Of a DNA stretch of 64,000 bases, positions 1 to 63,860 are shown piece by piece. The DNA lies in contig JAUCBJ010006818.1 in the NCBI GenBank assembly GCA_032718475.1, positions 46,453-110,452 of the forward strand, written 5' to 3'. Both the position numbers and the translations under genes were made by a program. The notes beneath the pieces are model-generated. The model was given only the letters and a program-made list of their open reading frames with translations. It ran no database searches and was not told where the DNA came from. The DNA is from Nemertoderma westbladi (lineage: Eukaryota; Animalia; Xenacoelomorpha). Every line of letters begins with the position of its first letter. Position 1 is the stretch's first letter.

Positions 1-3000
1 CGTGTTGAATTCCTTGGAGTTAGTCCAGGTCCAGCAACTACTAACCGTGTTGAATTCCTTGGAGTTAGTCCAGGTCCAGTAACTACTAACCGTGTTGAAT
101 TCCTTGATGGAGTTAGTCCAGGTCCAGTAACTACTAACCGAGTTGAATTCCTTGGAGTTAGTCCAGGTCCAGTAACTACTAACCGAGTTGAATTCCTTGG
201 AGTTAGTCCAGGTCCAGTAACTACTAACCGAGTTGAATTCCTTGGAGTTAGTCCAGGTCCAGTAACTACTAACCGAGTTGAATTCCTTGGAGTTAGTCCA
301 GGTCCAGTAACTACTAACCGAGTTGAATTCCTTGGAGTTAGTCCAGGTCCAGTAAATACTAACCGAGTTGAATTCCTTGATGGAGTTAGTCCAGGTCCAG
401 TAACTACTAACCGAGTTGAATTCCTTGATGGAGTTAGTCCAGGTCCAGTAACTACTAACCGAGTTGAATTCCTTGATGGAGTTAGTCCAGGTCCAGTAAC
501 TACTAACCGAGTTGAATTCCTTGGAGTTAGTCCAGGTCCAGTAAATACTAACCGAGTTGAATTCCTTGATGGAGTTAGTCCAGGTCCAGTAACTACTAAC
601 CGAGTTGAATTCCTTGATGGAGTTAGTCCAGGTCCAGTAACTACTAACCGAGTTGAATTCCTTGATGGAGTTAGTCCAGGTCCAGTAACTACTAACCGAG
701 TTGAATTCCTTGGAGTTAGTCCAGGTCCAGTAACTACTAACCGAGTTGAATTCCTTGGAGTTAGTCCAGGTCCAGTAACTACTAACCGAGTTGAATTCCT
801 TGGAGTTAGTCCAGGTCCAGTAAATACTAACCGAGTTGAATTCCTTGATGGAGTTAGTCCAGGTCCAGTAACTACTAACCGAGTTGAATTCCTTGATGGA
901 GTTAGTCCAGGTCCAGTAACTACTAACCGTGTTGAATACCTTGGTGGAGTTCGTCCACGTCCAGTAACTACTAACCGTGTTGAATTCTTTGGAGTTAGTC
1001 CAGGTCCAGTAACTACTAACCGAGTTGAATTCCTTGGAGTTAGTCCAGGTCCAGTAACTACTAACCGTGTTGAATTCCTTGGAGTTAGTCCAGGTCCAGT
1101 AACTACTAACCGTGCTGAATACCTTGATGGAGTTAGTCCAGGTCCAGTAACTACTAACCGAGTTGAATTCCTTGGAGTTAGTCCAGGTCCAGTAACTACT
1201 AACCGAGTTGAATTCCTTGGTGGAGTTCGTCCACGTCCAGTAACTACTAACCGTGTTGAATTCCTTGATGGAGTTAGTCCAGGTCCAGTAACTACTAACC
1301 GAGTTGAATTCCTTGATGGAGTTAGTCCAGGTCCAGTAACTACTAACCGAGTTGAATTCCTTGATGGAGTTAGTCCAGGTCCAGTAACTACTAACCGAGT
1401 TGAATTCCTTGATGGAGTTAGTCCAGGTCCAGTAACTACTAACCGAGTTGAATTCCTTGATGGAGTTAGTCCAGGTCCAGTAACTACTAACCGAGTTGAA
1501 TTCCTTGATGGAGTTAGTCCAGGTCCAGTAACTACTAACCGAGTTGAATTACTTGGAGATAGTCCAGGTCCAGTAACTACTAACCGTGTTGAATTCCTTG
1601 ATGGAGTTAGTCCAGGTCCAGTAACTACTAACCGAGTTGAATTCCTTGATGGAGTTAGTCCAGGTCCAGTAACTACTAACCGAGTTGAATTCCTTGATGG
1701 AGTTAGTCCAGGTCCAGTAACTACTAACCGTGTTGAATACCTTGGTGGAGTTCGTCCACGTCCAGTAACTACTAACCGTGTTGAATTCTTTGGAGTTAGT
1801 CCAGGTCCAGTAACTACTAACCGAGTTGAATTCCTTGGAGTTAGTCCAGGTCCAGTAACTACTAACCGAGTTGAATTCCTTGGAGTTAGTCCAGGTCCAG
1901 TAACTACTAACCGTGTTGAATTCCTTGGAGTTAGTCCAGGTCCAGTAACTACTAACCGAGTTGAATTCCTTGGTGGAGTTCGTCCACGTCCAGTAACTAC
2001 TAACCGTGTTGAATTCCTTGATGGAGTTAGTCCAGGTCCAGTAACTACTAACCGAGTTGAATTCCTTGGAGTTAGTCCAGGTCCAGTAACTACTAACCGA
2101 GTTGAATTCCTTGATGGAGTTAGTCCAGGTTCAGTAACTACTAACCGAGTTGAATTCCTTGATGGAGTTAGTCCAGGTCCAGTAACTACTAACCGAGTTG
2201 AATTCCTTGATGGAGTTAGTCCAGGTCCAGTAACTACTAACAGTGTTGAATTCCTTGATGGAGTTAGTCCAGGTCCAGTAACTACTAACCGAGTTGAATT
2301 CCTTGGAGTTAGTCCAGGTCCAGCAACTACTAACCGTGTTGAATTCCTTGGAGTTAGTCCAGGTCCAGTAACTACTAACCGTGTTGAATTCCTTGATGGA
2401 GTTAGTCCAGGTCCAGTAACTACTAACCGAGTTGAATTCCTTGATGGAGTTAGTCCAGGTCCAGTAACTACTAACCGAGTTGAATTCCTTGATGGAGTTA
2501 GTCCAGGTCCAGTAACTACTAACCGTGTTGAATACCTTGGTGGAGTTCGTCCAGGTCCAGTAACTACTAACCGAGTTGAATTCCTTGATGGAGTTAGTCC
2601 AGGTCCAGTAACTACTAACCGAGTTGAATTACTTGGAGATAGTCCAGGTCCAGTAACTACTAACCGTGTTGAATACCTTGGTGGAGTTCGTCCACGTCCA
2701 GTAACTACTAACCGAGTTGAATTACTTGGAGATAGTCCAGGTCCAGTAACTACTAACCGTGTTGAATTCTTTGGAGTTAGTCCAGGTCCAGTAACTACTA
2801 ACCGAGTTGAATTACTTGGAGATAGTCCAGGTCCAGTAACTACTAACCGTGTTGAATTCTTTGGAGTTAGTCCAGGTCCAGTAACTACTAACCGAGTTGA
2901 ATTCCTTGATGGAGTTAGTCCAGGTCCAGTAACTACTAACCGAGTTGAATTCTTTGGAGTTAGTCCAGGTCCAGTAACTACTAACCGAGTTGAATTCCTT

Positions 3001-6000
3001 GACGGAGTTAGTCCAGGTCCAGTAACTACTAACCGAGTTGAATTACTTGGAGATAGTCCAGGTCCAGTAACTACTAACCGTGTTGAATTCTTTGGAGTTA
3101 GTCCAGGTCCAGTAACTACTAACCGAGTTGAATTCCTTGATGGAGTTAGTCCAGGTCCAGTAACTACTAACCGTGTTGAATTCCTTGATGGAGTTAGTCC
3201 AGGTCCAGTAACTACTAACCGAGTTGAATTCCTTGATGGAGTTAGTCCAGGTCCAGTAACTACTAACCGAGTTGAATTCCTTGATGGAGTTAGTCCAGGT
3301 CCAGTAACTACTAACCGAGTTGAATTCCTTGATGGAGTTAGTCCAGGTCCAGTAACTACTAACCGAGTTGAATTCCTTGGAGTTAGTCCAGGTCCAGTAA
3401 CTACTAACCGAGTTGAATTCCTTGGAGTTAGTCCAGGTCCAGTAACTACTAACCGAGTTGAATTCCTTGATGGAGTTAGTCCAGGTCCAGTAACTACTAA
3501 CCGAGTTGAATTCCTTGGAGTTAGTCCAGGTCCAGTAACTACTAACCGAGTGGAATTCCTTGGAGTTAGTCCAGGTCCAGTAACTACTAACCGAGTTGAA
3601 TTCCTTGATGGAGTTAGTCCAGGTCCAGTAACTACTAACCGTGTTGAATTCCTTGATGGAGTTAGTCCAGGTCCAGTAACTACTAACCGAGTTGAATTCC
3701 TTGATGGAGTTAGTCCAGGTCCAGTAACTACTAACCGAGTTGAATTCCTTGGAGTTAGTCCAGGTCCAGTAACTACTAACCGAGTTGAATTCCTTGGAGT
3801 TAGTCCAGGTCCAGTAACTACTAACCGAGTTGAATTCCTTGGTGGAGTTCGTCCACGTCCAGTAACTACTAACCGTGTTGAATTCCTTGGAGTTAGTCCA
3901 GGTCCAGTAACTACTAACCGAGTTGAATTCCTTGATGGAGTTAGTCCAGGTCCAGTAACTACTAACCGAGTTGAATTCCTTGGTGGAGTTAGTCCAGGTC
4001 CAGTAACTACTAACCGAGTTGAATTCCTTGATGGAGTTAGTCCAGGTCCAGTAACTACTAACCGAGTTGAATTCCTTGATGGAGTTAGTCCAGGTCCAGT
4101 AACTACTAACCGAGTTGAATTCCTTGATGGAGTTAGTCCAGGTCCAGTAACTACTAACCGAGTTGAATTCCTTGGTGGAGTTAGTCCAGGTCCAGTAACT
4201 ACTAACCGAGTTGAATTCCTTGGAGTTAGTCCAGGCCCAGTAACTACTAACCGAGTTGAATTCCTTGGAGTTAGTCCAGGTCCAGTAACTACTAACCGTG
4301 TTGAATTCCTTGGTGGAGTTAGTCCAGGTCCAGTAACTACTAACCGAGTTGAATTCCTTGGAGTTAGTCCAGGTCCAGTAACTACTAACCGTGTTGAATT
4401 CCTTGGTGGAGTTAGTCCAGGTCCAGTAACTACTAACCGTGTTGAATTCCTTGGTGGAGTTAGTCCAGGTCCAGTAACTACTAACCGAGTTGAATTCCTT
4501 GGAGTTAGTCCAGGTCCAGTAACTACTAACCGTGTTGAATTACTTGATGGAGTTAGTCCAGGCCCAGTAACTACTAACCGAGTTGAATTCCTTGGAGTTA
4601 GTCCAGGTCCAGTAACTACTAACCGTGTTGAATTCCTTGGTGGAGTTCGTCCAGGTCCAGTAACTACTAACCGAGTTGAATTCCTTGGAGTTAGTCCAGG
4701 CCCAGTAACTACTAACCGAGTTGAATTCCTTGATGGAGTTAGTCCAGGTCCAGTAACTACTAACTGAGTTGAATTCCTTGATGGAGTTAGTCCAGGTCCA
4801 GTAACTACTAACCGAGTTGAATTCCTTGGAGTTAGTCCAGGCCCAGTAACTACTAACCGAGTTGAATTCCTTGATGGAGTTAGTCCAGGTCCAGTAACTA
4901 CTAACCGAGTTGAATTCCTTGGTGGAGTTCGTCCAGGTCCAGTAACTACTAACCGAGTTGAATTCCTTGGAGTTAGTCCAGGCCCAGTAACTACTAACCG
5001 AGTTGAATTCCTTGATGGAGTTAGTCCAGGTCCAGTAACTACTAACCGAGTTGAATTCCTTGATGGAGTTAGTCCAGGTCCAGTAACTACTAACCGAGTT
5101 GAATTCCTTGGAGTTAGTCCAGGCCCAGTAACTACTAACCGAGTTGAATTCCTTGGAGTTAGTCCAGGTCCAGTAACTACTAACCGTGTTGAATTCCTTG
5201 GTGGAGTTCGTCCACGTCCAGTAACTACTAACCGAGTTGAATTCCTTGGAGTTAGTCCAGGTCCAGTAACTACTAACCGAGTTGAATTCCTTGATGGAGT
5301 TAGTCCAGGTCCAGTAACTACTAACCGTGTTGAATTCCTTGGAGTTAGTCCAGGTCCAGTAACTACTAACCGTGTTGAATACCTTGGTGGAGTTCGTCCA
5401 GGTCCAGTAACTACTAACCGAGTTGAATTCCTTGGAGTTAGTCCAGGTCCAGTAACTACTAACCGAGTTGAATTCCTTGGAGTTAGTCCAGGTCCAGTAA
5501 CTACTAACCGTGTTGAATTCCTTGATGGAGTTAGTCCAGGTCCAGTAACTACCAACCGTGTTGAATTCCTTGGAGTTAGTCCAGGTCCAGTAACTACTAA
5601 CCGTGTTGAATTCCTTGATGGAGTTAGTCCAGGTCCAGTAACTACTAACCGAGTTGAATTCCTTGATGGAGTTAGTCCAGGTCCAGTAACTACTAACCGA
5701 GTTGAATTCCTTGATGGAGTTAGTCCAGGTCCAGTAACTACTAACCGAGTTGAATTCCTTGGAGTTAGTCCAGGTCCAGTAACTACTAACCGAGTTGCAT
5801 TCCCGATGGAGTTAGTCCAGGTCCAGTAACTACTAACCGAGTTGAATTCCTTGATGGAGTTAGTCCAGGTCCAGTAACTACTAACCGAGTTGAATTCCTT
5901 GATGGAGTTAGTCCAGGTCCAGTAACTACTAACCGAGTGGAATTCCTTGGAGTTAGTCCAGGTCCAGTAACTACTAACCGTGTTGAATTCCTTGATGGAG

Positions 6001-9000
6001 TTAGTCCAGGTCCAGTAACTACTAACCGTGTTGAATTCCTTGATGGAGTTAGTCCAGGTCCAGTAACTACTAACCGAGTTGAATTCCTTGGAGTTAGTCC
6101 AGGTCCAGTAACTACTAACCGAGTTGAATTCCTTGATGGAGTTAGTCCAGGTCCAGTAACTACTAACCGTGTTGAATTCCTTGATGGAGTTAGTCCAGGT
6201 CCAGTAACTACTAACCGAGTTGAATTCCTTGGAGTTAGTCCAGGTCCAGTAACTACTAACCGAGTTGAATTCCTTGATGGAGTTAGTCCAGGTCCAGTAA
6301 CTACTAACCGAGTTGAATTCCTTGGAGTTAGTCCACGTCCAGTAACTACTAACCGTGTTGAATACCTTGGTGGAGTTCGTCCACGTCCAGTAACTACTAA
6401 CCGTGTTGAATTCTTTGGAGTTAGTCCAGGTCCAGTAACTACTAACCGTGTTGAATTACTTGATGGAGTTAGTCCAGGTCCAGTAACTACTAACCGAGTT
6501 GAATTCCTTGATGGAGTTAGTCCAGGTCCAGTAACTACTAACCGAGTTGAATTCCTTGATGGAGTTAGTCCAGGTCCAGTAACTACTAACCGAGTTGAAT
6601 TCCTTGGAGTTAGTCCAGGTCCAGTAACTACTAACCGAGTTGAATTCCTTGATGGAGTTAGTCCAGGTCCAGTAACTACTAACCGAGTTGAATTCCTTGA
6701 TGGAGTTAGTCCAGGTCCAGTAACTACTAACCGAGTTGAATTCCTTGATGGAGTTAGTCCAGGTCCAGTAACTACTAACCGTGTTGAATTCCTTGATGGA
6801 GTTAGTCCAGGTCCAGTAACTACTAACCGAGTTGAATTCCTTGATGGAGTTAGTCCAGGTCCAGTAACTACTAACCGAGTTGAATTCCTTGATGGAGTTA
6901 GTCCAGGTCCAGTAACTACTAACCGAGTTGAATTCCTTGATGGAGTTAGTCCAGGTCCAGTAACTACTAACCGTGTTGAATTCCTTGATGGAGTTAGTCC
7001 AGGTCCAGTAACTACTAACCGAGTTGAATTCCTTGGAGTTAGTCCAGGTCCAGTAACTACTAACCGAGTTGAATTCCTTGATGGAGTTAGTCCAGGTCCA
7101 GTAACTACTAACCGAGTTGAATTCCTTGGAGTTAGTCCAGGTCCAGTAACTACTAACCGAGTTGAATTCCTTGATGGAGTTAGTCCACGTCCAGTAACTA
7201 CTAACCGTGTTGAATACCTTGGTGGAGTTCGTCCACGTCCAGTAACTACTAACCGTGTTGAATTCCTTGATGGAGTTAGTCCAGGTCCAGTAACTACTAA
7301 CCGAGTTGAATTCCTTGATGGAGTTAGTCCAGGTCCAGTAACTACTAACCGAGTTGAATTCCTTGGAGTTAGTCCAGGTCCAGTAACTACTAACCGAGTT
7401 GAATTCCTTGATGGAGTTAGTCCAGGTCCAGTAACTACTAACCGAGTTGAATTCCTTGATGGAGTTAGTCCAGGTCCAGTAACTACTAACCGAGTTGAAT
7501 TCCTTGGAGTTAGTCCAGGTCCAGTAACTACTAACCGAGTTGAATTCCTTGATGGAGTTAGTCCAGGTCCAGTAACTACTAACCGAGTTGAATTCCTTGA
7601 TGGAGTTAGTCCAGGTCCAGTAACTACTAACCGAGTTGAATTCCTTGGAGTTAGTCCAGGTCCAGTAACTACTAACCGAGTTGAATTCCTTGATGGAGTT
7701 AGTCCAGGTCCAGTAACTACTAACCGAGTTTAATTCCTTGGTGGAGTTCGTCCACGTCCAGTAACTACTAACCGTGTTGAATTCTTTGGAGTTAGTCCAG
7801 GTCCAGTAACTACTAACCGAGTTGAATTCCTTGATGGAGTTAGTCCAGGTCCAGTAACTACTAACCGAGTTGAATTCCTTGGAGTTAGTCCAGGTCCAGT
7901 AACTACTAACCGTGTTGAATTACTTGATGGAGTTAGTCCAGGTCCAGTAACTACTAACCGTGTTGAATTACTTGACGGAGTTAGTCCAGGTCCAGTAACT
8001 ACTAACCGTGTTGAATACCTTGGTGGAGTTCGTCCACGTCCAGTAACTACTAACCGTGTTGAATTCTTTGGAGTTAGTCCAGGTCCAGTAACTACTAACC
8101 GAGTTGAATTCCTTGATGGAGTTAGTCCAGGTCCAGTAACTACTAACCGAGTTGAATTCCTTGGAGTTAGTCCACGTCCAGTAACTACTAACCGTGTTGA
8201 ATACCTTGGTGGAGTTCGTCCACGTCCAGTAACTACTAACCGTGTTGAATTCTTTGGAGTTAGTCCAGGTCCAGTAACTACTAACCGAGTTGAATTCCTT
8301 GATGGAGTTAGTCCAGGTCCAGTAACTACTAACCGAGTTGAATTCCTTGGAGTTAGTCCAGGTCCAGTAACTACTAACCGAGTTGAATTCCTTGATGGAG
8401 TTAGTCCAGGTCCAGTAACTACTAACCGAGTTGAATTCCTTGATGGAGTTAGTCCAGGTCCAGTAACTACTAACCGAGTTGAATTCCTTGATGGAGTTAG
8501 TCCAGGTCCAGTAACTACTAACCGTGTTGAATTCCTTGATGGAGTTAGTCCAGGTCCAGTAACTACTAACCGAGTTGAATTCCTTGATGGAGTTAGTCCA
8601 GGTCCAGTAACTACTAACCGAGTTGAATTCCTTGATGGAGTTAGTCCAGGTCCAGTAACTACTAACCGAGTTGAATTCCTTGATGGAGTTAGTCCAGGTC
8701 CAGTAACTACTAACCGTGTTGAATTCCTTGATGGAGTTAGTCCAGGTCCAGTAACTACTAACCGAGTTGAATTCCTTGGAGTTAGTCCAGGTCCAGTAAC
8801 TACTAACCGAGTTGAATTCCTTGATGGAGTTAGTCCACGTCCAGTAACTACTAACCGTGTTGAATACCTTGGTGGAGTTCGTCCACGTCCAGTAACTACT
8901 AACCGTGTTGAATTCCTTGATGGAGTTAGTCCAGGTCCAGTAACTACTAACCGAGTTGAATTCCTTGATGGAGTTAGTCCAGGTCCAGTAACTACTAACC

Positions 9001-12000
9001 GAGTTGAATTCCTTGATGGAGTTAGTCCAGGTCCAGTAACTACTAACCGAGTTGAATTCCTTGATGGAGTTAGTCCAGGTCCAGTAACTACTAACCGTGT
9101 TGAATTCCTTGATGGAGTTAGTCCAGGTCCAGTAACTACTAACCGAGTTGAATTCCTTGGAGTTAGTCCAGGTCCAGTAACTACTAACCGAGTTGAATTC
9201 CTTGATGGAGTTAGTCCAGGTCCAGTAACTACTAACCGAGTTTAATTCCTTGATGGAGTTAGTCCAGGTCCAGTAACTACTAACCGTGTTGAATTCCTTG
9301 ATGGAGTTAGTCCAGGTCCAGTAACTACTAACCGAGTTGAATTCCTTGGAGTTAGTCCAGGTCCAGTAACTACTAACCGAGTTGAATTCCTTGATGGAGT
9401 TAGTCCACGTCCAGTAACTACTAACCGTGTTGAATACCTTGGTGGAGTTCGTCCACGTCCAGTAACTACTAACCGTGTTGAATTCCTTGATGGAGTTAGT
9501 CCAGGTCCAGTAACTACTAACCGAGTTGAATTCCTTGGAGTTAGTCCAGGACCAGTAACTACTAACCGAGTTGAATTCCTTGGAGTTAGTCCAGGTCCAG
9601 TAACTACTAACCGTGTTGAATACCTTGGTGGAGTTCGTCCAGGTCCAGTAACTACTAACCGTGTTGAATTCCTTGATGGAGTTAGTCCAGGTCCAGTAAC
9701 TACTAACCGTGTTGAATTCCTTGATGGAGTTAGTCCAGGTCCAGTAACTACTAACCGTGTTGAATTCCTTGATGGAGTTAGTCCAGGTCCAGTAACTACT
9801 AACCGAGTTGAATTCCTTGATGGAGTTAGTCCAGGTCCAGTAACTACTAACCGTGTTGAATTCCTTGGAGTTAGTCCAGGTCCAGTAACTACTAACCGAG
9901 TTGAATTCCTTGATGGAGTTAGTCCAGGTCCAGTAACTACTAACCGAGTTGAATTCCTTGATGGAGTTAGTCCAGGTCCAGTAACTACTAACCGTGTTGA
10001 ATTCCTTGGAGTTAGTCCAGGTCCAGTAACTACTAACCGAGTTGAATTCCTTGATGGAGTTAGTCCAGGTCCAGTAACTACTAACCGTGTTGAATTCCTT
10101 GGAGTTAGTCCAGGTCCAGTAACTACTAACCGTGTTGAATTCCTTGGTGGAGTTAGTCCAGGTCCAGTAACTACTAACCGAGTTGAATTCCTTGGTGGAG
10201 TTCGTCCACGTCCAGTAACTACTAACCGAGTTGAATTCCTTGATGGAGTTAGTCCAGGTCCAGTAACTACTAACCGAGTTGAATTCCTTGATGGAGTTAG
10301 TCCAGGTCCAGTAACTACTAACCGTGTTGAATTCCTTGATGGAGTTAGTCCAGGTCCAGTAACTACTAACCGTGTTGAATTCCTTGGAGTTAGTCCAGGT
10401 CCAGTAACTACTAACCGTGTTGAATTCCTTGATGGAGTTAGTCCAGGTCCAGTAACTACTAACCGAGTTGAATTCCTTGATGGAGTTAGTCCAGGTCCAG
10501 TAACTACTAACCGAGTTGAATTCCTTGGAGTTAGTCCAGGTCCAGTAACTACTAACCGAGTTGAATTACTTGATGGAGTTAGTCCAGGTCCAGTAACTAC
10601 TAACCGAGTTGAATTCCTTGGAGTTAGTCCAGGTCCAGTAACTACTAACCGAGTTGAATTACTTGACGGAGTTAGTCCAGGTCCAGTAACTATTAACCGA
10701 GTTGAATTCCTTGGAGTTAGTCCAGGTCCAGTAACTACTAACCGTGTTGAATACCTTGGTGGAGTTCGTCCAGGTCCAGTAACTACTAACCGAGTTGAAT
10801 TCCTTGGAGTTAGTCCAGGTCCAGTAACTACTAACCGTGTTGAATTCCTTGATGGAGTTAGTCCAGGTCCAGTAACTACTAACCGAGTTGAATTCCTTGA
10901 TGGAGTTAGTCCAGGTCCAGTAACTACTAACCGAGTTGAATTCCTTGGAGTTAGTCCAGGTCCAGTAACTACTAACCGAGTTGAATTACTTGATGGAGTT
11001 AGTCCAGGTCCAGTAACTACTAACCGAGTTGAATTCCTTGGAGTTAGTCCAGGTCCAGTAACTACTAACCGAGTTGAATTACTTGACGGAGTTAGTCCAG
11101 GTCCAGTAACTACTAACCGTGTTGAATACCTTGGTGGAGTTAGTCCAGGTCCAGTAACTACTAACCGAGTTGAATTACTTGACGGAGTTAGTCCAGGTCC
11201 AGTAACTACTAACCGAGTTGAATTACTTGACGGAGTTAGTCCAGGTCCAGTAACTACTAAACGGTTGAATTCCTTGATGGAGTTAGTCCAGGTCCAGTAA
11301 CTACTAACCGAGTTGAATTACTTGACGGAGTTAGTCCAGGTCCAGTAACTACTAACCGAGTTGAATTACTTGACGGAGTTAGTCCAGGTCCAGTAACTAC
11401 TAACCGAGTTGAATTCCTTGATGGAGTTAGTCCAGGTCCAGTAACTACTAACCGTGTTGAATACCTTGGTGGAGTTCGTCCAGGTCCAGTAACTACTAAC
11501 CGAGTTGAATTACTTGACGGAGTTAGTCCAGGTCCAGTAACTACTAACCGAGTTGAATTCCTTGGAGTTAGTCCAGGTCCAGTAACTACTAACCGAGTTG
11601 AATTCCTTGGAGTTAGTCCAGGTCCAGTAACTACTAACCGAGTTGAATTACTTGACGGAGTTAGTCCAGGTCCAGTAACTACTAACGTGTTGAATTCCTT
11701 GGAGTTAGTCCAGGTCCAGTAACTACTAACCGAGTTGAATTCCTTGGAGTTAGTCCAGGTCCAGTAACTACTAACCGTGTTGAATACCTTGGTGGAGTTC
11801 GTCCAGGTCCAGTAACTACTAACCGAGTTGAATTCCTTGGAGTTAGTCCAGGTCCAGTAACTACTAACCGAGTTGAATTCCTTGATGGAGTTAGTCCAGG
11901 TCCAGTAACTACTAACGTGTTGAATTCCTTGGAGTTAGTCCAGGTCCAGTAACTACTAACCGAGTTGAATTCCTTGGAGTTAGTCCAGGTCCAGTAACTA

Positions 12001-50809: not shown

Positions 50810-50823
50810 TCCAGTAACTACTA
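50810..50823. repeat. Target-site duplication of LINE copy 2 (partner at 51357-51370)
   Basis: TCCAGTAACTACTA occurs on both sides, and removing the element plus one copy restores an intact unit. It is consensus array sequence, so it is less diagnostic than the copy 1 TSD. Confidence 0.75.
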
Positions 50824-51356
50824 CTAGGATCGGCATGCTGCATTGCAGCTGCATTTTTAAGAATGCTGTGCCGGCTTGTCAACAAAATTGCACCGCCACA
50901 ACTCCCTATCACCCATGACATTTGCTAGATCATCCGCATCTTTAAGGCCAGTGTCCTTTAAAATGCGTCTCAAGAAAGTCATGGGCTGTCCACCATGCTT
51001 ATTCACTCCATGAGGCTGCCAAAGTACAAGATTATGCACTGGCTGGTCCTCACGGCGAAAGCAATGTCCTGCAAAGCGGAGGCGATTTTGTTCTAGTGTC
51101 AAGCTTGGGGGAACCAATGAGACACCTCCAATGTTATATAGTGTCTGGTTGGAGATGTGTGCATTGTACTTGACACAATGTACCCGGCGTAGCATTCTTG
51201 TGAATGTGCCATCCAGAGATTTGGTGTCCTCAGCAGTTAGAGCCCAGCATGGACTCCCGTAGAGGAGTACTGGAACTACTGCTGCTCTGAATAATCGGAC
51301 CTTAAGTTTCCGATTAATTCTAGGTGACTTCCAAATCCTGGAAAGCCTATTCCTAT
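50824..51356 (-). mobile_element. 5'-truncated copy 2 of the same LINE, about 533 bp (C-terminal coding region, 3' UTR and TAG tail)
   Basis: It matches 61269-61797 except for 5 substitutions found by manual comparison. The apparent 14-bp TSD is TCCAGTAACTACTA (50810-50823 and 51357-51370). Confidence 0.93.
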
Positions 51357-54300
51357 TCCAGTAACTACTAACCGTGTTGAATACCTTGGTGGAGTTCGTC
51401 CAGGTCCAGTAACTACTAACCGTGTTGAATTACTTGATGGAGTTAGTCCAGGTCCAGTAACTACTAACCGTGTTGAATTCCTTGGAGTTAGTCCAGGTCC
51501 AGTAACTACTAACCGTGTTGAATTCATTGATGGCGTTAGTCCAGGTTCAGTAACTACTAACCGAGTTGAATACCTTGGTGGAGTTCGTCCAGGTCCAGTA
51601 ACTACTAACCGTGTTGAATTCCTTGGAGTTAGTCCAGGTCCAGTAACTACTAACCGTGTTGAATTCCTTGACGGAGTTAGTCCAGGTCCAGTAACTACTA
51701 ACCGAGTTGAATACCTTGGTGGAGTTCGTCCAGGTCCAGTAACTACTAACCGTGTTGAATTCCTTGGAGTTAGTCCAGGTCCAGTAACTACTAACCGTGT
51801 TGAATTCCTTGACGGAGTTAGTCCAGGTCCAGTAACTACTAACCGAGTTGAATACCTTGATGGAGTTAGTCCAGGTCCAGTAACTACTAACCGAGTTGAA
51901 TTCCTTGGAGTTAGTCCAGGTCCAGTAACTACTAACCGAGTTTAATTCCTTGATGGAGTTAGTCCAGGTCCAGTAACTACTAACCGAGTTGAATACCTTG
52001 ATGGAGTTAGTCCAGGTCCAGTAACTACCAACCGTGTTGAATTCCTTGGAGTTAGTCCAGGTCCAGTAACTACTAACCGAGTTTAATTCCTTGATGGAGT
52101 TAGTCCAGGTCCAGTAACTACTAACCGTGTTGAATACCTTGGTGGAGTTCGTCCAGGTCCAGTAACTACTAACCGAGTTGAATTCCTTGATGGAGTTAGT
52201 CCAGGTCCAGTAACTACTAACCGTGTTGAATTACTTGATGGAGTTAGTCCAGGTCCAGTAACTACTAACCGAGTTGAATTACTTGACGGAGTTAGTCCAG
52301 GTCCAGTAACTACTAACCGAGTTGAATACCTTGATGGAGTTAGTCCAGGTCCAGTAACTACTAACCGAGTTGAATTCCTTGGAGTTAGTCCAGGTCCAGT
52401 AACTACTAACCGAGTTGAATTCCTTGGAGTTAGTCCAGGTCCAGTAACTACTAACCGAGTTGAATTACTTGACGGAGTTAGTCCAGGTCCAGTAACTACT
52501 AACCGAGTTGAATACCTTGATGGAGTTAGTCCAGGTCCAGTAACTACTAACCGAGTTGAATTCCTTGGAGTTAGTCCAGGTCCAGTAACTACTAACCGAG
52601 TTGAATTCCTTGGAGTTAGTCCAGGTCCAGTAACTACTAACCGAGTTGAATTACTTGACGGAGTTAGTCCAGGTCCAGTAACTACTAACCGAGTTGAATA
52701 CCTTGATGGAGTTAGTCCAGGTCCAGTAACTACTAACCGAGTTGAATTCCTTGGAGTTAGTCCAGGTCCAGTAACTACTAACCGAGTTGAATTCCTTGGA
52801 GTTAGTCCAGGTCCAGTAACTACTAACCGAGTTGAATTACTTGACGGAGTTAGTCCAGGTCCAGTAACTACTAACCGAGTTGAATACCTTGATGGAGTTA
52901 GTCCAGGTCCAGTAACTACTAACCGTGTTGAATACCTTGGTGGAGTTCGTCCAGGTCCAGTAACTACTAACCGAGTTGAATTCCTTGATGGAGTTAGTCC
53001 AGGTCCAGTAACTACTAACCGTGTTGAATTACTTGATGGAGTTAGTCCAGGTCCAGTAACTACTAACCGAGTTTAATTCCTTGATGGAGTTAGTCCAGGT
53101 CCAGTAACTACTAACCGTGTTGAATTACTTGATGGAGTTAGTCCAGGTCCAGTAACTACTAACCGAGTTTAATTCCTTGGAGTTAGTCCAGGTCCAGTAA
53201 CTACTAACCGTGTTGAATTACTTGATGGAGTTAGTCCAGGTCCAGTAACTACTAACCGTGTTGAATTCCTTGGAGTTAGTCCAGGTCCAGTAACTACTAA
53301 CCGTGTTGAATTCCTTGGAGTTAGTCCAGGTCCAGTAACTACTAACCGAGTTGAATTCCTTGGAGTTAGTCCAGGTCCAGTAACTACTAACCGAGTTGAA
53401 TTACTTGACGGAGTTAGTCCAGGTCCAGTAACTACTAACCGAGTTGAATACCTTGATGGAGTTAGTCCAGGTCCAGTAACTACTAACCGTGTTGAATACC
53501 TTGGTGGAGTTCGTCCAGGTCCAGTAACTACTAACCGAGTTGAATTCCTTGGAGTTAGTCCAGGTCCAGTAACTACTAACCGAGTTGAATTACTTGACGG
53601 AGTTAGTCCAGGTCCAGTAACTACTAACCGAGTTGAATTCCTTGGAGTTAGTCCAGGTCCAGTAACTACTAACCGTGTTGAATACCTTGGTGGAGTTCGT
53701 CCAGGTCCAGTAACTACTAACCGTGTTGAATTCCTTGATGGAGTTAGTCCAGGTCCAGTAACTACTAACCGAGTTGAATTCCTTGGAGTTAGTCCAGGTC
53801 CAGTAACTACTAACCGAGTTGAATTACTTGACGGAGTTAGTCCAGGTCCAGTAACTACTAACCGTGTTGAATACCTTGGTGGAGTTCGTCCAGGTCCAGT
53901 AACTACTAACCGAGTTTAATTCCTTGGAGTTAGTCCAGGTCCAGTAACTACTAACCGTGTTGAATACCTTGGTGGAGTTAGTCCAGGTCCAGTAACTACT
54001 AACCGAGTTGAATTCCTTGGAGTTAGTCCAGGTCCAGTAACTACTAACCGAGTTGAATTCCTTGATGGAGTTAGTCCAGGTCCAGTAACTACTAACCGAG
54101 TTGAATTCCTTGATGGAGTTAGTCCAGGTCCAGTAACTACTAACCGAGTTGAATTCCTTGGAGTTAGTCCAGGTCCAGTAACTACTAACCGAGTTGAATT
54201 CCTTGGAGTTAGTCCAGGTCCAGTAACTACTAACCGAGTTGAATTACTTGACGGAGTTAGTCCAGGTCCAGTAACTACTAACCGTGTTGAATTACTTGAT

Positions 54301-57300
54301 GGAGTTAGTCCAGGTCCAGTAACTACTAACCGAGTTTAATTCCTTGGAGTTAGTCCAGGTCCAGTAACTACTAACCGTGTTGAATTACTTGATGGAGTTA
54401 GTCCAGGTCCAGTAACTACTAACCGAGTTTAATTCCTTGGAGTTAGTCCAGGTCCAGTAACTACTAACCGTGTTGAATACCTTGGTGGAGTTAGTCCAGG
54501 TCCAGTAACTACTAACCGAGTTGAATTCCTTGGAGTTAGTCCAGGTCCAGTAACTACTAACCGAGTTGAATTACTTGACGGAGTTAGTCCAGGTCCAGTA
54601 ACTACTAACCGAGTTGAATTCCTTGGAGTTAGTCCAGGTCCAGTAACTACTAACCGAGTTGAATTACTTGACGGAGTTAGTCCAGGTCCAGTAACTACTA
54701 ACCGTGTTGAATTACTTGATGGAGTTAGTCCAGGTCCAGTAACTACTAACCGAGTTTAATTCCTTGGAGTTAGTCCAGGTCCAGTAACTACTAACCGTGT
54801 TGAATTACTTGATGGAGTTAGTCCAGGTCCAGTAACTACTAACCGAGTTTAATTCCTTGGAGTTAGTCCAGGTCCAGTAACTACTAACCGTGTTGAATAC
54901 CTTGGTGGAGTTAGTCCAGGTCCAGTAACTACTAACCGAGTTGAATTCCTTGGAGTTAGTCCAGGTCCAGTAACTACTAACCGAGTTGAATTACTTGATG
55001 GAGTTAGTCCAGGTCCAGTAACTACTAACCGAGTTTAATTCCTTGGAGTTAGTCCAGGTCCAGTAACTACTAACCGTGTTGAATACCTTGGTGGAGTTAG
55101 TCCAGGTCCAGTAACTACTAACCGAGTTGAATTCCTTGGAGTTAGTCCAGGTCCAGTAACTACTAACCGAGTTGAATTCCTTGGAGTTAGTCCAGGTCCA
55201 GTAACTACTAACCGAGTTGAATTACTTGACGGAGTTAGTCCAGGTCCAGTAACTACTAACCGTGTTGAATACCTTGGTGGAGTTAGTCCAGGTCCAGTAA
55301 CTACTAACCGAGTTGAATTACTTGACGGAGTTAGTCCAGGTCCAGTAACTACTAACCGTGTTGAATACCTTGGTGGAGTTAGTCCAGGTCCAGTAACTAC
55401 TAACCGAGTTGAATTCCTTGGAGTTAGTCCAGGTCCAGTAACTACTAACCGAGTTGAATTACTTGACGGAGTTAGTCCAGGTCCAGTAACTACTAACCGA
55501 GTTGAATTCCTTGGAGTTAGTCCAGGTCCAGTAACTACTAACCGAGTTGAATTACTTGACGGAGTTAGTCCAGGTCCAGTAACTACTAACCGTGTTGAAT
55601 ACCTTGGTGGAGTTCGTCCAGGTCCAGTAACTACTAACCGAGTTTAATTCCTTGGAGTTAGTCCAGGTCCAGTAACTACTAACCGTGTTGAATACCTTGG
55701 TGGAGTTCGTCCAGGTCCAGTAACTACTAACCGAGTTTAATTCCTTGGAGTTAGTCCAGGTCCAGTAACTACTAACCGTGTTGAATTCCTTGATGGAGTT
55801 AGTCCAGGTCCAGTAACTACTAACCGTGTTGAATTCCTTGATGGAGTTAGTCCAGGTCCAGTAACTACTAACCGAGTTGAATTCCTTGGAGTTAGTCCAG
55901 GTCCAGTAACTACTAACCGTGTTGAATTACTTGATGGAGTTAGTCCAGGTCCAGTAACTACTAACCGAGTTGAATTCCTTGGAGTTAGTCCAGGTCCAGT
56001 AACTACTAACCGAGTTGAATTCCTTGGAGTTAGTCCAGGTCCAGTAACTACTAACCGAGTTGAATTCCTTGGAGTTAGTCCAGGTCCAGTAACTACTAAC
56101 CGAGTTGAATTCCTTGGAGTTAGTCCAGGTCCAGTAACTACTAACCGTGTTGAATTCTTTGGAGTTAGTCCAGGTCCAGTAACTACTAACCGTGTTGAAT
56201 ACCTTGGTGGAGTTCGTCCAGGTCCAGTAACTACTAACCGAGTTGAATTCCTTGGAGTTAGTCCAGGTCCAGTAACTACTAACCGTGTTGAATTCCTTGA
56301 TGGAGTTAGTCCAGGTCCAGTAACTACTAACCGAGTTGAATTCCTTGGAGTTAGTCCAGGTCCAGTAACTACTAACCGAGTTGAATTACTTGACGGAGTT
56401 AGTCCAGGTCCAGTAACTACTAACCGTGTTGAATACCTTGGTGGAGTTCGTCCAGGTCCAGTAACTACTAACCGTGTTGAATTCCTTGATGGAGTTAGTC
56501 CAGGTCCAGTAACTACTAACCGAGTTCAATTCCTTGGAGTTAGTCCAGGTCCAGTAACTACTAACCGAGTTGAATTCCTTGATGGAGTTAGTCCAGGCCC
56601 AGTAACTACTAACCGAGTTGAATTCCTTGGAGTTAGTCCAGGTCCAGTAACTACTAACCGAGTTGAATTACTTGACGGAGTTAGTCCAGGTCCAGTAACT
56701 ACTAACCGAGTTGAATTCCTTGGAGTTAGTCCAGGTCCAGTAACTACTAACCGAGTTGAATTACTTGACGGAGTTAGTCCAGGTCCAGTAACTACTAACC
56801 GTGTTGAATACCTTGGTGGAGTTCGTCCAGGTCCAGTAACTACTAACCGTGTTGAATACCTTGGTGGAGTTAGTCCAGGTCCAGTAACTACTAACCGAGT
56901 TGAATTACTTGACGGAGTTAGTCCAGGTCCAGTAACTACTAACCGTGTTGAATACCTTGGTGGAGTTCGTCCAGGTCCAGTAACTACTAACCGTGTTGAA
57001 TTCCTTGATGGAGTTAGTCCAGGTCCAGTAACTACTAACCGAGTTGAATTCCTTGGAGTTAGTCCAGGTCCAGTAACTACTAACCGAGTTGAATTCCTTG
57101 ATGGAGTTAGTCCAGGCCCAGTAACTACTAACCGAGTTGAATTCCTTGGAGTTAGTCCAGGTCCAGTAACTACTAACCGAGTTGAATTACTTGACGGAGT
57201 TAGTCCAGGTCCAGTAACTACTAACCGAGTTGAATTCCTTGGAGTTAGTCCAGGTCCAGTAACTACTAACCGTGTTGAATACCTTGGTGGAGTTAGTCCA

Positions 57301-60300
57301 GGTCCAGTAACTACTAACCGAGTTGAATTCCTTGGAGTTAGTCCAGGTCCAGTAACTACTAACCGAGTTGAATTACTTGACGGAGTTAGTCCAGGTCCAG
57401 TAACTACTAACCGTGTTGAATACCTTGGTGGAGTTAGTCCAGGTCCAGTAACTACTAACCGAGTTGAATTACTTGACGGAGTTAGTCCAGGTCCAGTAAC
57501 TACTAACCGTGTTGAATACCTTGGTGGAGTTAGTCCAGGTCCAGTAACTACTAACCGAGTTGAATTCCTTGGAGTTAGTCCAGGTCCAGTAACTACTAAC
57601 CGAGTTGAATTACTTGACGGAGTTAGTCCAGGTCCAGTAACTACTAACCGAGTTGAATTCCTTGGAGTTAGTCCAGGTCCAGTAACTACTAACCGAGTTG
57701 AATTACTTGACGGAGTTAGTCCAGGTCCAGTAACTACTAACCGTGTTGAATTCCTTGATGGAGTTAGTCCAGGTCCAGTAACTACTAACCGTGTTGAATA
57801 CCTTGGTGGAGTTCGTCCAGGTCCAGTAACTACTAACCGTGTTGAATTCCTTGATGGAGTTAGTCCAGGTCCAGTAACTACTAACCGAGTTGAATTCCTT
57901 GATGGAGTTAGTCCAGGTCCAGTAACTACTAACCGTGTTGAATTCCTTGGAGTTAGTCCAGGTCCAGTAACTACTAACCGAGTTGAATTCCTTGATGGAG
58001 TTAGTCCAGGTCCAGTAACTACTAACCGAGTTGAATTCCTTGATGGAGTTAGTCCAGGTCCAGTAACTACTAACCGTGTTGAATTCCTTGGAGTTAGTCC
58101 AGGTCCAGTAACTACTAACCGAGTTGAATTCCTTGATGGAGTTAGTCCAGGTCCAGTAACTACTAACCGTGTTGAATTCCTTGGAGTTAGTCCAGGTCCA
58201 GTAACTACTAACCGTGTTGAATTCCTTGGTGGAGTTAGTCCAGGTCCAGTAACTACTAACGTGTTGAATTCCTTGGAGTTAGTCCAGGTCCAGTAACTAC
58301 TAACCGTGTTGAATTCCTTGGTGGAGTTAGTCCAGGTCCAGTAACTACTAACCGAGTTGAATTCCTTGGTGGAGTTCGTCCACGTCCAGTAACTACTAAC
58401 CGTGTTGAATTCCTTGGAGTTAGTCCAGGTCCAGTAACTACTAACCGTGTTGAATTCCTTGGTGGAGTTAGTCCAGGTCCAGTAACTACTAACCGAGTTG
58501 AATTCCTTGATGGAGTTAGTCCAGGTCCAGTAACTACTAACCGAGTAGAATTCCTTGGAGTTAGTCCAGGTCCAGTAACTACTAACCGAGTTGAATTCCT
58601 TGATGGAGTTAGTCCAGGTCCAGTAACTACTAACCGTGTTGAATTCCTTGGAGTTAGTCCAGGTCCAGTAACTACTAACCGAGTTGAATTCCTTGATGGA
58701 GTTAGTCCAGGTCCAGTAACTACTAACCGAGTTGAATTCCTTGGAGTTAGTCCAGGTCCAGTAACTACTAACCGTGTTGAATTCCTTGATGGAGTTAGTC
58801 CAGGTCCAGTAACTACTAACCGTGTTGAATTCCTTGGAGTTAGTCCAGGTCCAGTAACTACTAACCGAGTTGAATTCCTTGATGGAGTTAGTCCAGGTCC
58901 AGTAACTACTAACCGAGTTGAATTCCTTGGAGTTAGTCCAGGTCCAGTAACTACTAACCGTGTTGAATTCCTTGATGGAGTTAGTCCAGGTCCAGTAACT
59001 ACTAACCGAGTTGAATTCCTTGGAGTTAGTCCAGGTCCAGTAACTACTAACCGAGTTGAATTCCTTGGAGTTAGTCCAGGTCCAGTAACTACTAACCGTG
59101 TTGAATTCCTTGGAGTTAGTCCAGGTCCAGTAACTACTAACCGTGTTGAATTCCTTGATGGAGTTAGTCCAGGTCCAGTAACTACTAACCGAGTTGAATT
59201 CCTTGGAGTTAGTCCAGGTCCAGTAACTACTAACCGTGTTGAATTCCTTGATGGAGTTAGTCCAGGTCCAGTAACTACTAACCGAGTTGAATTCCTTGGA
59301 GTTAGTCCAGGTCCAGTAACTACTAACCGAGTTGAATTCCTTGGAGTTAGTCCAGGTCCAGTAACTACTAACCGTGTTGAATTCCTTGATGGAGTTAGTC
59401 CAGGTCCAGTAACTACTAACCGAGTTGAATTCCTTGGAGTTAGTCCAGGTCCAGTAACTACTAACCGAGTTGAATTCCTTGGAGTTAGTCCAGGTCCAGT
59501 AACTACTAACCGTGTTGAATTCCTTGATGGAGTTAGTCCAGGTCCAGTAACTACTAACCGAGTTGAATTCCTTGGAGTTAGTCCAGGTCCAGTAACTACT
59601 AACCGAGTTGAATTCCTTGATGGAGTTAGTCCAGGTCCAGCCAGTAACTACTAACCGTGTTGAATTCCTTGGAGTTAGTCCAGGTCCAGTAACTACTAAC
59701 CGAGTTGAATTCCTTGGTGGAGTTCGTCCAGGTCCAGTAACTACTAACCGAGTTGAATTCCTTGGAGTTAGTCCAGGTCCAGTAACTACTAACCGTGTTG
59801 AATTCCTTGGAGTTAGTCCAGGTCCAGTAACTACTAACCGTGTTGAATTCCTTGATGGAGTTAGTCCAGGTCCAGTAACTACTAACCGAGTTGAATTCCT
59901 TGGAGTTAGTCCAGGTCCAGTAACTACTAACCGTGTTGAATACCTTGATGGAGTTAGTCCAGGTCCAGTAACTACTAACCGAGTAGAATTCCTTGGAGTT
60001 AGTCCAGGTTCAGTAACTACTAACCGAGTTGAATTCCTTGGAGTTAGTCCAGGTCCAGTAACTACCAACCGTGTTGAATTCCTTGATGGAGTTAGTCCAG
60101 GTCCAGTAACTACTAACCGTATTAAATTCATTGATGGCGTTAGTCCAGGTTTAGTAACTACTGACGTGTTGAATTCCTTGGAGTTAGTCCAGGTCCAGTA
60201 ACTACTAATCGAGTTGAATTCCTTGGAGTTAGTCCAGGTCCAGTAACTACTAACCGAGTTGAATTCCTTGATGGAGTTAGTCCAGGTCCAGTAACTACCA

Positions 60301-61262
60301 ACCGTGTTGAATTCCTTGGAGTTAGTCCAGGTCCAGTAACTACTAACCGAGTTGAATTCCTTGATGGAGTTAGTCCAGGTCCAGTAACTACTAACCGTGT
60401 TGAATTCATTGATGGAGTTAGTCCAGGTCCAGTAACTACTAACGTGTTGAATTCCTTGGAGTTAGTCCAGGTCCAGTAACTACTAACCGAGTTGAATTCC
60501 TTGATGGAGTTAGTCCAGGTCCAGTAACTACTAACCGAGTTGAATTCCTTGATGGAGTTAGTCCAGGTCCAGTAACTACTAACCGAGTTGAATTCCTTGA
60601 TGGAGTTAGTCCAGGTCCAGTAACTACTAACCGAGTAGAATTCCTTGGAGTTAGTCCAGGTTCAGTAACTACTAACCGAGTTGAATTCCTTGGAGTTAGT
60701 CCAGGTCCAGTAACTACCAACTGTGTTGAATTCCTTGATGGAGTTAGTCCAGGTCCAGTAACTACTAACCGTATTAAATTCATTGATGGCGTTAGTCCAG
60801 GTTCAGTAACTACTAACCGTGTTGAATTCCTTGGAGTTAGTCCAGGTCCAGTAACTACTAACCGAGTTGAATTCCTTGATGGAGTTAGTCCAGGTCCAGT
60901 AACTACTAACCGAGTTGAATTCCTTGATGGAGTTAGTCCAGGTCCAGTAACTACTAACCGAGTAGAATTCCTTGGAGTTAGTCCAGGTCCAGTAACTACT
61001 AACCGTGTTGAATTCCTTGATGGAGTTAGTCCAGGTCCAGTAACTACCAACCGTGTTGAATTCCTTGGAGTTAGTCCAGGTCCAGTAACTACTAACCGGG
61101 TTGAATTCCTTGATGGAGTTAGTCCAGGTCCAGTAACTACCAACCGTGTTGAATTCCTTGGAGTTAGTCCAGGTCCAGTAACTACTAACCGAGTTGAATT
61201 CCTTGATGGAATTAGTCCAGGTCCAGTAACTACTAACCGTGTTGAATTCATTGATGGCGTTA
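51357..61262. repeat. 48/45-bp tandem array, middle segment between the two LINE copies
   Basis: Same unit and same orientation as the distal segment. Confidence 0.99.
61251..61262. repeat. Target-site duplication of LINE copy 1 (partner at 62331-62342)
   Basis: TTGATGGCGTTA occurs on both sides. It carries the rare GGCG variant of the unit (normally GGAG), so it is not a trivial array match. Confidence 0.92.
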
Positions 61263-62330
61263 CTACTACTAGGATCGGCATGCTGCATTGCAGCTGCATT
61301 TTTAAGAATGCTGTGCCGGCTTGTCAACAAAATTGCACCGCCACAACTCCCTATCACCCATGACATTTGCTAGATCATCCGCATCTTTAAGGCCAGTGTC
61401 CTTTAAGATGCGTCTCAAGAAAGTCATGGGCTGTCCACCATGCTTATTCACTCCATGAGGCTGCCAAAGTACAAGATTATGCACTGGCTGGTCCTCACGG
61501 CTAAAGCAATGTCCTGCAAAGCGGAGGCGATTTTGTTCTAGTGTCAAGCTTGGGGGAACCAATGAGACACCTCCAATGTTATATAGTGTCTGGTTGGAGA
61601 TGTGTGCATTGTACTTGACACAATGAACCCGGCGTAGCATTCTTGTGAATGTGCCATCCAGAGATTTGGTGTCCTCAGCAGTTAGAGCCCAGCATGGACT
61701 CCCGTAGAGGAGTACTGGAACTACTGCTGCTCTAAATAATCGGACCTTAAGTTTCCGATTAATTCTCGGTGACTTCCAAATCCTGGAAAGCCTATTCAAG
61801 GCTGCCCATGCCTTTCCCTTACGTATTCGAAGGTCCTCACCTGACTTCCGGATCCATGATCCCAGGTAACAGAAGTCGTCCACATGCTCAAGCATACCAT
61901 CCTTTGAGCTTATGCTCATCCGATCAGAGACTTGCTGAGCACTTTCAAAGTTAACTGTCAGAATTTTGGTCTTTCTGGAGTTAATAAAAAGACCAACACT
62001 AGAAGCAGCATGTTCTAATGAGCTGAGGAGCCGTTGGGCTCCCTCTAATGATTCTGAGAGTACTCCTAAGTCATCAGCAAAGTCTAGATCAGTTAGGTAC
62101 TTGGCAGGATTTCCTCGACTTCTGGAGCCAGTAGGTGGAGTTATCATCACCCCATCATCATTATAATGATCTAAGGACATGCGTAGAACATAGTCAACCA
62201 CAATAATGAACAAGAATGGTGCAAGTGTGTCTCCTTGGAGGACGCCCTATAACACTTCAAATGGTTCTGTGACACCATCAACAGTAGACACAAATGTTGT
62301 CGAACCATCGTATACTGATCTGATCTGATC
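61263..62330 (-). mobile_element. 5'-truncated non-LTR retrotransposon (RTE-clade-like LINE), copy 1, 1068 bp
   Basis: RT motifs GVLQGDTLAPFLFIIVVDY, DLDFADD and FCYLGSWI, then C-terminal LLYGS and RLRFAGHC. It has a very short 3' UTR ending in (TAG)3 and a 12-bp TSD, TTGATGGCGTTA (61251-61262 and 62331-62342). The clade call is from motif recognition and tail type only. Confidence 0.93.
61302..62324 (-). pseudogene. Truncated reverse transcriptase ORF of LINE copy 1 (3' part of RT plus C-terminal domain)
   Basis: The frame of ORF 61302-62213 continues upstream as IRSVYDGSTTFVSTVDGVTEPFEVL*GVLQGDTLAPF, with a single in-frame TAG at 62249-62247. There is no endonuclease domain or N-terminal RT. 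Confidence 0.88.
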
Positions 62331-63628
62331 TTGATGGCGTTAGTCCAGGTTCAGTAACTACTATCGTGTTGAATTCCTTGGAGTTAGTCCAGGTCCAGTA
62401 ACTACTAATCGAGTTGAATTCGTTGGAGTTAGTCCAGGTCCAGTAACTACTAACCGAGTTGAATTCCTTGATGGAGTTAGTCCAGGACCAGTAACTACTA
62501 ACCGAGTTGAATTCCTTGATGGAGTTAGTCCAGGTCCAGTAACTACTAACCGAGTGGAATTCATTGATGGAGTTAGTCCAGGTCCAGTAACTACTAACCG
62601 AGTTGAATTCCTTGATGGAGTTAGTCCAGGTCCAGTAACTACTAACCGAGTGGAATTCCTTGATGGAGTTAGTCCAGGTCCAGTAACTACTAACCGAATT
62701 GAATTCCTTGGAGTTAGTCCAGGTCCAGTAACTACTAACCGTGTTGAATTCCTTGATGGAGTTAGTCCAGGTCCAGTAACTACTAACCGTGTTGAATTCC
62801 TTGATGGAGTTAGTCCAGGTCCAGTAACTACTAACCGAGTTGAATTCCTTGGAGTTAGTCCAGGTCCAGTAACTACTAACCGTGTTGAATTCCTTGATGG
62901 AGTTAGTCCAGGTCCAGTAACTACTAACCGTGTTGAATTCCTTGATGGAGTTAGTCCAGGTCCAGTAACTACTAACCGAGTTGAATTCCTTGGAGTTAGT
63001 CCAGGTCCAGTAACTACTAACCGAGTTGAATTCCTTGGAGTTAGTCCAGGTCCAGTAACTACTAACCGTGTTGAATTCCTTGATGGAGTTAGTCCAGGTC
63101 CAGTAACTACTAACCGAGTTGAATTCCTTGATGGAGTTAGTCCAAGTCCAGTAACTACTAACCGTGTTGAATTCCTTGGAGTTAGTCCAGGTCCAGTAAC
63201 TGCTAACCGTGTTGAATTCCTTGATGGAGTTAGTCCAGGTCCAGTAACTACTAACCGTGTTGAATTCCTTGATGGAGTTAGTCCAGGTCCAGTAACTACT
63301 AACCGTGTTGAATTCCTTGATGGAGTTAGTCCAGGTCCAGTAACTACTAACCGTGTTGAATTCCTTGGAGTTAGTCCAGGTCCAGTAACTACTAACCGTG
63401 TTGAATTCCTTGATGGAGTTAGTCCAGGTCCAGTAACTACTAACCGTGTTGAATTCCTTGATGGAGTTAGTCCAGGTCCAGTAACTACTAACCGTGTTGA
63501 ATTCCTTGATGCAGTTAGTCCAGGTCCAGTAACTACTAACCGTGTTGAATTCCTTGATGGAGTTAGTCCAGGTCCAGTAACTACTAACCGTGTTGAATTC
63601 CTTGATGGAGTTAGTCCAGGTCCAGTAA
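62331..63628. repeat. 48/45-bp tandem array, exon-proximal segment (about 27-28 units); the last unit overlaps the 3' 39-40 nt of the exon
   Basis: Periodicity ends at ...ggtccagtaa|tgagctttg (63628), inside the His-Tyr codons of KAHYWTW. Confidence 0.98.
63583..63591 (-). promoter_or_regulatory. First (presumed native) 5' splice donor of the GALNS exon, ACG|GTTAGT
   Basis: GT is at 63588-63587, immediately after codon T of KEFNT. Homology to GALNS stops here, and the position matches the recalled human exon end after WENFRQ. Confidence 0.8.
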
Positions 63629-63831
63629 TGAGCTTTGTATATTCCAACACGAACAGCCATCAACTCGTTGCCACGGTAATAGAATATAGGTCGGTTATTA
63701 TCAGTGTTTCCGTGTAGGAGTAGCGGTAGAAGGGATTGTCCGTCGATCTGTCTGTCGGTCGGTTTCGGTACCTTACCGATATCCAGAACCGTGGTGAACA
63801 GATCCATCACAGTCGACGGCTGATGGGTCAC
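63589..63831 (-). CDS. GALNS: Internal coding exon (243 bp, 81 codons, phase 0/0) of an N-acetylgalactosamine-6-sulfatase (GALNS) orthologue
   Basis: It translates to VTHQPSTVMDLFTTVLDIGKVPKPTDRQIDGQSLLPLLLHGNTDNNRPIFYYRGNELMAVRVGIYKAHYWTWTNSIKEFNT. This aligns by eye to the human GALNS segment as I recall it (VSHQLGSIMDLFTT...IDG.NLLP.LL...RPIFYYRGDTLMA...KAHFWTWTNSWENFRQ). The exon is flanked by an acceptor (TTTCTAACAACAG|GTG) and a donor (ACG|GTTAGT). The start M in the ORF track is really GTG (Val) after the AG. Confidence 0.92.
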
Positions 63832-63860
63832 CTGTTGTTAGAAACCAATGACAAAAACAT
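63832..63860 (-). promoter_or_regulatory. 3' splice acceptor and pyrimidine-rich tract of the upstream GALNS intron
   Basis: The minus strand reads ATGTTTTTGTCATTGGTTTCTAACAACAG|GTGACC, with AG at 63833-63832. AT-rich non-coding sequence continues to 64000. Confidence 0.85.

Follow-up and report, generated by a model that had tools for sequence, protein, structure and literature searches.

Which donor is chosen when the 5' splice site of a gene is present in more than a thousand tandem copies? This question was raised in an earlier note on a stretch of DNA from Nemertoderma westbladi (GenBank assembly GCA_032718475.1, contig JAUCBJ010006818.1), of which we analysed the whole 64,000 nucleotides (further called the window). 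The premise of the question holds, since more than 1,000 donors are indeed present in the intron of a GALNS gene, but the arrangement as such is already known and the choice of donor has been published for F7 (as described in PMC1557585). The features on which our analysis is based are collected in Table 1.

Table 1. Features of the GALNS locus (positions are those of the window)
Feature	Position	Strand	Remarks
Upstream intron	63832..64000	-	169 nt, AT-rich, ends in AG; covered by contigs of runs X1-X3, without cover in run X4
GALNS coding exon	63589..63831	-	243 nt, both ends in phase 0, equivalent to human residues 335-414; phmmer, Sulfatase_C
Unit 1	63580..63627	-	39 nt of exon end followed by 9 nt of intron start; the GT at 63588-63587 is the authentic donor
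Proximal array block	62331..63579	-	units 2-27 and the start of unit 28
LINE copy 1	61263..62330	-	5'-truncated, assigned to the non-LTR retrotransposons; sense to GALNS
Main array	1..61262	-	about 1,296 units, mixed variants; continues beyond the window
LINE copy 2	about 50818..51357	-	5'-truncated, sense to GALNS, (TAG)3 tail
45-nt TTA/TCG variant, example (unit 758)	26517..26561	-	joined to the next exon in run X4

The GALNS exon and its donor

The 81-aa product of the exon matches human GALNS (4fdi_A) with E=4.5e-23 in a phmmer search, the score being 84 bits against 28 for steryl-sulfatase among the solved-structure matches. A Sulfatase_C domain match is found as well, and among the homologue matches listed, those bearing a function name are all named GALNS. 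Judged by sequence similarity, the exon is that of GALNS, as the match is far beyond chance and far above those to other sulfatases. In a tree (35 rows, 83 columns) it falls outside the vertebrate clade, with no closer named group. The same stretch comprises two exons in human GALNS and a single exon here; a literature look-up yielded no human boundary that splits it.

Residue 79 of the query pairs with chain residue 386 of 4fdi, which is human Phe412, and the human codons assigned to the exon in Table 1 (335-414) follow from this alignment together with the residue numbering given for His398, Lys399 and Asn407 in PMC9291100. Both exon ends coincide with the human boundaries stated there (c.1002/1003 and c.1242/1243), and the donor GT lies at the position of human c.1242+1. 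The first unit of the array is thus the true end of the exon and human GALNS has an intron at the same position, as was proposed beforehand.

The WTWTNS motif of the exon end is present in 115 of the 120 homologues retrieved and is continued by G-x-(D/N)-F-C in 105 of these. Five of the other ten turn unrelated at exactly the donor codon, with Val as the first residue, as expected of intron read-through. These are gene models of a lizard, a sponge, two salmonids and a sparrow (rows P0011, P0016, P0034, P0039 and P0050); the public models run into the intron at the GALNS donor and are therefore likely mis-annotated at that point.

Composition of the array and its presence in other runs

A tandem array with a period of 48 is detected by TRF over 4-63628, and parsing the minus strand from 63627 to the window start yields 1,324 segments, in agreement with the roughly 1,300 copies counted in the earlier note and with its description of the monomer (39 nt of the exon end plus 9 nt of the intron start). 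Most segments are 48 nt (826) or 45 nt long (471, by a 3-nt deletion of the Ile codon), while 24 segments of 41-52 nt shift the frame; the remaining three are a partial end unit and two units interrupted by insertions. As the array runs off the window, its size is a lower bound of at least 1,324 units or 63.6 kb. The array of more than 63 kb that had been described does extend from 63627 to the window start, but two LINE fragments which were missed at the time interrupt it.

The donor context (A/T)CG/GTTAGT is kept in 1,267 of the 1,322 scored units (TCG/GTTAGT in 895 and ACG/GTTAGT in 372), so that the donors are near-identical as stated before; nonetheless, the unit quoted at that time is not the commonest one, with exact copies of unit 1 found in only 93 of 1,322 units (mean of 1.6 mismatches per unit). 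All of units 1-10 are of the ancestral ACG type (10/10, against 30% beyond unit 27), and units 2-26 are in frame and without stops. For the array as a whole we see no sign of coding (an in-frame stop in 274 of 1,322 units, a frame shift in 24). Neither is there a sign that downstream donors have been inactivated: position +1 is changed in 7 of 1,297 units and +2 in none, like other positions.

In total, 112 segment types are present. The longest exact repeated block counts 17 units (against 6-7 in five shuffles), only three blocks reach 12, and the few variants recombine freely along the array. No long higher-order repeat was found, the best lag autocorrelation being 0.21 against a baseline of 0.12. 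From this variant pattern we infer growth by many short duplications and exchanges. The repeat would have been seeded at the GALNS junction by slippage and would be neutral, after which local duplication of short blocks and unequal exchange would have enlarged the array while its copies drifted.

Some further properties of the units can be mentioned. Each unit has a branch-point-like CTAAC at positions 14-18, located 27-30 nt ahead of two AGs (43-44 and 46-47) without a pyrimidine tract; no use of these acceptors is seen in the contigs of X4. CTAAC moreover reads as the reverse complement of the donor hexamer, which allows units to fold back on their donors. Rarer and more diverged units are located at 60808-60109, 51552 and about 5800. 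Among the diverged units is the stop-bearing type into which LINE copy 1 has inserted, and they appear again near 60.8-60.1 kb as well as shortly before LINE copy 2. Stop-bearing GTC/TAA units occur only beyond unit 66 and become scarce once more below about 9 kb.

Both insertions are, on sequence features, copies of a non-LTR retrotransposon (LINE), as shown by an RT domain, 5' truncation, a simple-repeat 3' tail and a target-site duplication. Copy 1 holds an open frame of 314 aa covering the RT and C-terminal part (RVT_1, E=1.1e-9), ends in a (TAG)3 tail and is flanked by a 12-bp target-site duplication (62331-62342 and 61251-61262). Copy 2 is identical to copy 1 at 531 of 536 bases and has a target duplication of at least 7 bp; junctions and duplications were read by eye from the sequence. 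Given the open frame and the 99% identity, the family is likely still active. A search with the LINE returned mostly unnamed matches (best 52% identity), and the copies may resemble the RTE clade. At the second insertion the LINE tail coincides with the array's TAGTAG spacer, at the first with two bases; the 5' junctions bear short additions in tandem, namely a 5-mer in three copies and a 6-mer in two.

The GALNS flank was found in four public runs (X1-X4), which stem from one organism, three samples and three studies; the best DNA run with the flank may stem from the source of the window itself. Contigs of X1-X3 run from the intron into the exon and hence behave as DNA, which places the array in DNA runs of two samples. 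Repeat contigs in these runs have about 50 to more than 1,000 times the depth of the flank. In X1 the 48-nt TCG cycle reaches 48 times the flank depth, where the array of the window would give 460, whereas the summed repeat depth in X3 is 57,000 times that of the flank (the overcount being no more than about 17). The ratios of repeat to flank depth thus differ between samples S1 and S2, depth being no copy number. Array length may therefore differ tenfold or more between animals, though depth is a hint only and library bias is possible. A search for the variant units in contigs of X8 gave no match, which is not proof of absence.

It might be argued that the length of the array is an artefact of assembly, given that the depth in S1 suggests about one tenth of the length in the window. 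We consider this extremely unlikely. The order of the variants is non-repeating and two distinct LINE insertions are present, the short repeated blocks and freely mixed variants count against an assembly loop, and the depth in X3 implies, as a rough estimate, at least as many copies.

Two observations concern the flanks of the array. The upstream intron is polymorphic at 63960-63967 and 63875: X1 shows two substitutions and a 1-base deletion in a heterozygous-like manner, X3 a single substitution. In addition, one DNA contig of X2 exits a unit at 63589, right after the last exon codon and without GT, into 46 bases of AT-rich sequence absent from the window. This exit, which was not listed when the runs were compared with three variant units, is a candidate for the far edge of the array, another insertion or a dispersed copy.

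Splicing observed in run X4

X4 is a single run, available as contigs only and labelled 'DNA?', and its RNA status is read from the contigs themselves. Cover over the upstream intron is zero and the exon contig (411 nt, depth 108) leaves at 63835 into the upstream exon. The loose end on the upstream side translates by hand to AWWPGTIKPGQ and those on the downstream side to GIDFCPGQV, both as in homologues. We infer that X4 behaves as RNA. Since the exon is joined to both of its neighbours, the GALNS gene is live, and the first donor gives normally spliced mRNA; the expected splicing at the donor behind YWTWTNS is thereby found.

Three junctions lead into the next exon in X4. The coding ACG unit is joined to it at a depth of 88.2 (61 nt), a one-base TCG variant at 27.2 (57 nt) and a 45-nt TTA/TCG variant at 85.6 (61 nt), the last into the same next exon with 38 of 38 letters identical. 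This corresponds to shares of 44%, 14% and 43%, which are rough figures, as contig depth reflects level poorly (and RNA starts are invisible in contigs). The junction of the TTA variant was predicted before it was seen: the 57-nt length of the second contig implied a merge with a further variant, which was subsequently found when the runs were compared with three variant units. The junction with a depth of 27 may be an allele or a downstream unit.

The TTA/TCG variant differs from the coding unit by a 3-nt deletion and two substitutions. Within the window 25 identical copies are present, the first being unit 146 (55767) at 7.8 kb from the exon, and by depth it accounts for 40 of 5,640 units at that base in X2 and for none in X3. 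It is ten times rarer than the common 45-nt unit with the identical nine donor bases. In the X4 graph the variant follows a 45-nt TCG unit, an order found for none of its 25 copies in the window; no DNA of X4's animal is listed and its array may be arranged differently, possibly being shorter. In predicted RNA folds neither the first donor nor that of the variant is particularly accessible (unpaired probability of the donor 0.165 in the TTA variant, 0.204 in the common 45-nt unit). Position, for instance last in the array, is our guess for the simplest explanation of its choice.

A total of 30 TTA-variant units is found, mostly at 55767-48146, and most of these alternate with other units in clusters. 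The hexamer ATTAAA, a poly(A) signal, occurs on the sense strand of the array in this variant only (30 of 30 occurrences), which may be chance.

To interpret the contigs, five models were simulated as unpruned 31-mer graphs with a random stand-in for the next exon; the contigs of Logan come from Minia, which prunes graph paths (PMC12424806). Only one of the five models reproduced all five contigs (the exon ending at 63592, and those of 75, 61, 57 and 61), namely the one where repeat units, and not the exon, feed into the variant. Consequently, an internal donor is likely used and the RNAs concerned likely begin within a few repeats of the variant donor. The depth of the exon (108) fits the two 48-nt junctions (115) and not all three (201). 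The repeat-cycle contig is only 115 deep, against 86 at the variant junction, so that the repeat portion of these RNAs is likely one to a few units long and does not extend over kilobases. No path of entry into the repeat cycle is seen in the X4 contigs. A model in which unit 1 is spliced to an acceptor inside the array (H4) was rejected, as it shortens the repeat cycle to 74 and does not fit the contigs.

The variant junction could also originate at the level of DNA, as an allele or a partial second copy in X4's animal that has the variant unit at the exon end or fused to the next exon. Only first donors would then be used, as in F7, which agrees with the published upstream-first rule; no DNA run is listed for X4's sample, and the junction with a depth of 27 is well explained as an allele. 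Nonetheless we regard this explanation as unlikely. When three alleles of unit 1 are simulated (H1), the exon contig breaks at 63606 with doubled depth, against the observed end at 63592 and depth of 108. Moreover, the residue deleted in the 45-nt unit is missing in none of the 105 homologues of standard spacing, and X1-X3 list no loose end running from a unit to the next exon (which is not proof of absence).

A second alternative, to which we give a slightly lower probability still, is an error of donor choice on the full-length pre-mRNA, where an internal or last donor is used and the exon is kept together with many units, likely leading to NMD. The donor is kept in nearly all units, units 2-26 are in frame, and use of downstream donors is described for CBS and IFI6 in PMC1557585, all of which would allow such an error. 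The graphs speak against it: when read-through starts at unit 1 or at a TCG allele (H2, H2b), the junction contigs are split, whereas they are whole in X4. A long retained stretch would furthermore raise the repeat depth far above 115 (at 0.38 cycle counts per unit), and the depth of the exon contig shows no decay over its 411 nt.

Finally, the long allele of the window might be dead or truncated, with the spliced RNA of X4 derived from short-array alleles. The hint of a length difference of about tenfold or more between samples points in this direction, as do the little repeat sequence in X4 and the lack of RNA from the window's own animal. We find this very unlikely, given that the exon is intact, in frame and has both splice sites, that the units adjacent to it are ancestral in type, and that Drosophila splices satellite introns of far greater size (PMC6508621).

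Overall, the reading that we hold to be probable is that of a piece of 48 bp, containing the exon end and its donor, which is repeated more than 1,300 times, where the first donor functions normally and a variant donor, likely inside the array, is joined as well, likely from RNAs that start nearby. On full-length pre-mRNA the first donor would win by the upstream-first rule described for F7. A second class of RNAs would start, or be cut, inside the array, and the same rule would then pick a nearby donor. Such array-started RNAs would contain no catalytic N-terminal part, and we would regard them as by-products rather than as a regulated isoform.

A stronger claim is possible, though we advance it tentatively and think it unlikely to hold: that donors inside the array, above all one rare variant, account for about half of all joins to the next GALNS exon, the array being a satellite born from the gene's own junction. 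The output of this housekeeping gene would depend on the length of the satellite and on its variants. With similar reserve it might be said that upstream-first choice would then coexist with, or break down into, satellite-initiated splicing, and that large differences in length would exist between individuals.

Comparison with known systems and meaning

Exon-intron minisatellites in which the first monomer holds the donor are described for several human genes in PMC1557585: F7 IVS7 (37 bp, 5-9 copies), CBS IVS13 (15-20), IFI6/6-16 (25 pseudo-sites), LMNB2 (100 bp, 10-15) and PDGF intron 4 (81 bp, 16-18). In the cases described there, the first one to three donors are used, with the upstream-first rule for F7. 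The GALNS array is of the same kind in that its first monomer contains the authentic donor (X4 joins 63589 to the next exon, and human has c.1242+1), the donor is reiterated down the intron and the first donor gives normal mRNA. It differs by its size (no fewer than 1,324 units over at least 63.6 kb, where the human genes have 5-25 copies), by a monomer which is 81% exon (39 of 48 nt) and keeps the frame, whereas that of F7 is exonic for 4 of 37, and by LINE insertions inside. Furthermore, a rare variant outside the first three donors of this haplotype is joined to the next exon with a depth close to that of the authentic junction.

Giant introns filled with satellites, up to megabases, are described for the Drosophila Y genes kl-3 and kl-5 (PMC6508621, PMC11207136). 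GALNS resembles these genes in that it codes for a protein and has an intron enlarged by tandem repeats; unlike them, it encodes a housekeeping enzyme and only 63.6 kb of array are seen in the window. A splice junction of the gene itself is not known to be the source of the satellites in kl-3 and kl-5. In the mostly open-access literature searched, no junction-seeded array of such size was found. The kind of array is therefore known, and what is new is its size (at least 50 times the human cases), the mostly exonic and in-frame monomer, and the sign that an internal donor is used.

If only first donors were used after all, this would be an extreme but ordinary repeat. Nonetheless, the ancestral monomer is known and is held by protein coding, so that every change in the 1,300 copies has a direction and the array forms a clean record of the birth and spread of a satellite. 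The choice between 5' splice sites is also put to a natural test here, in an array 50 times the size of the human cases behind the upstream-first rule. The unit variants serve as barcodes that reveal which donor was used and, on our preferred reading, X4 alone already shows a donor other than the first in use.
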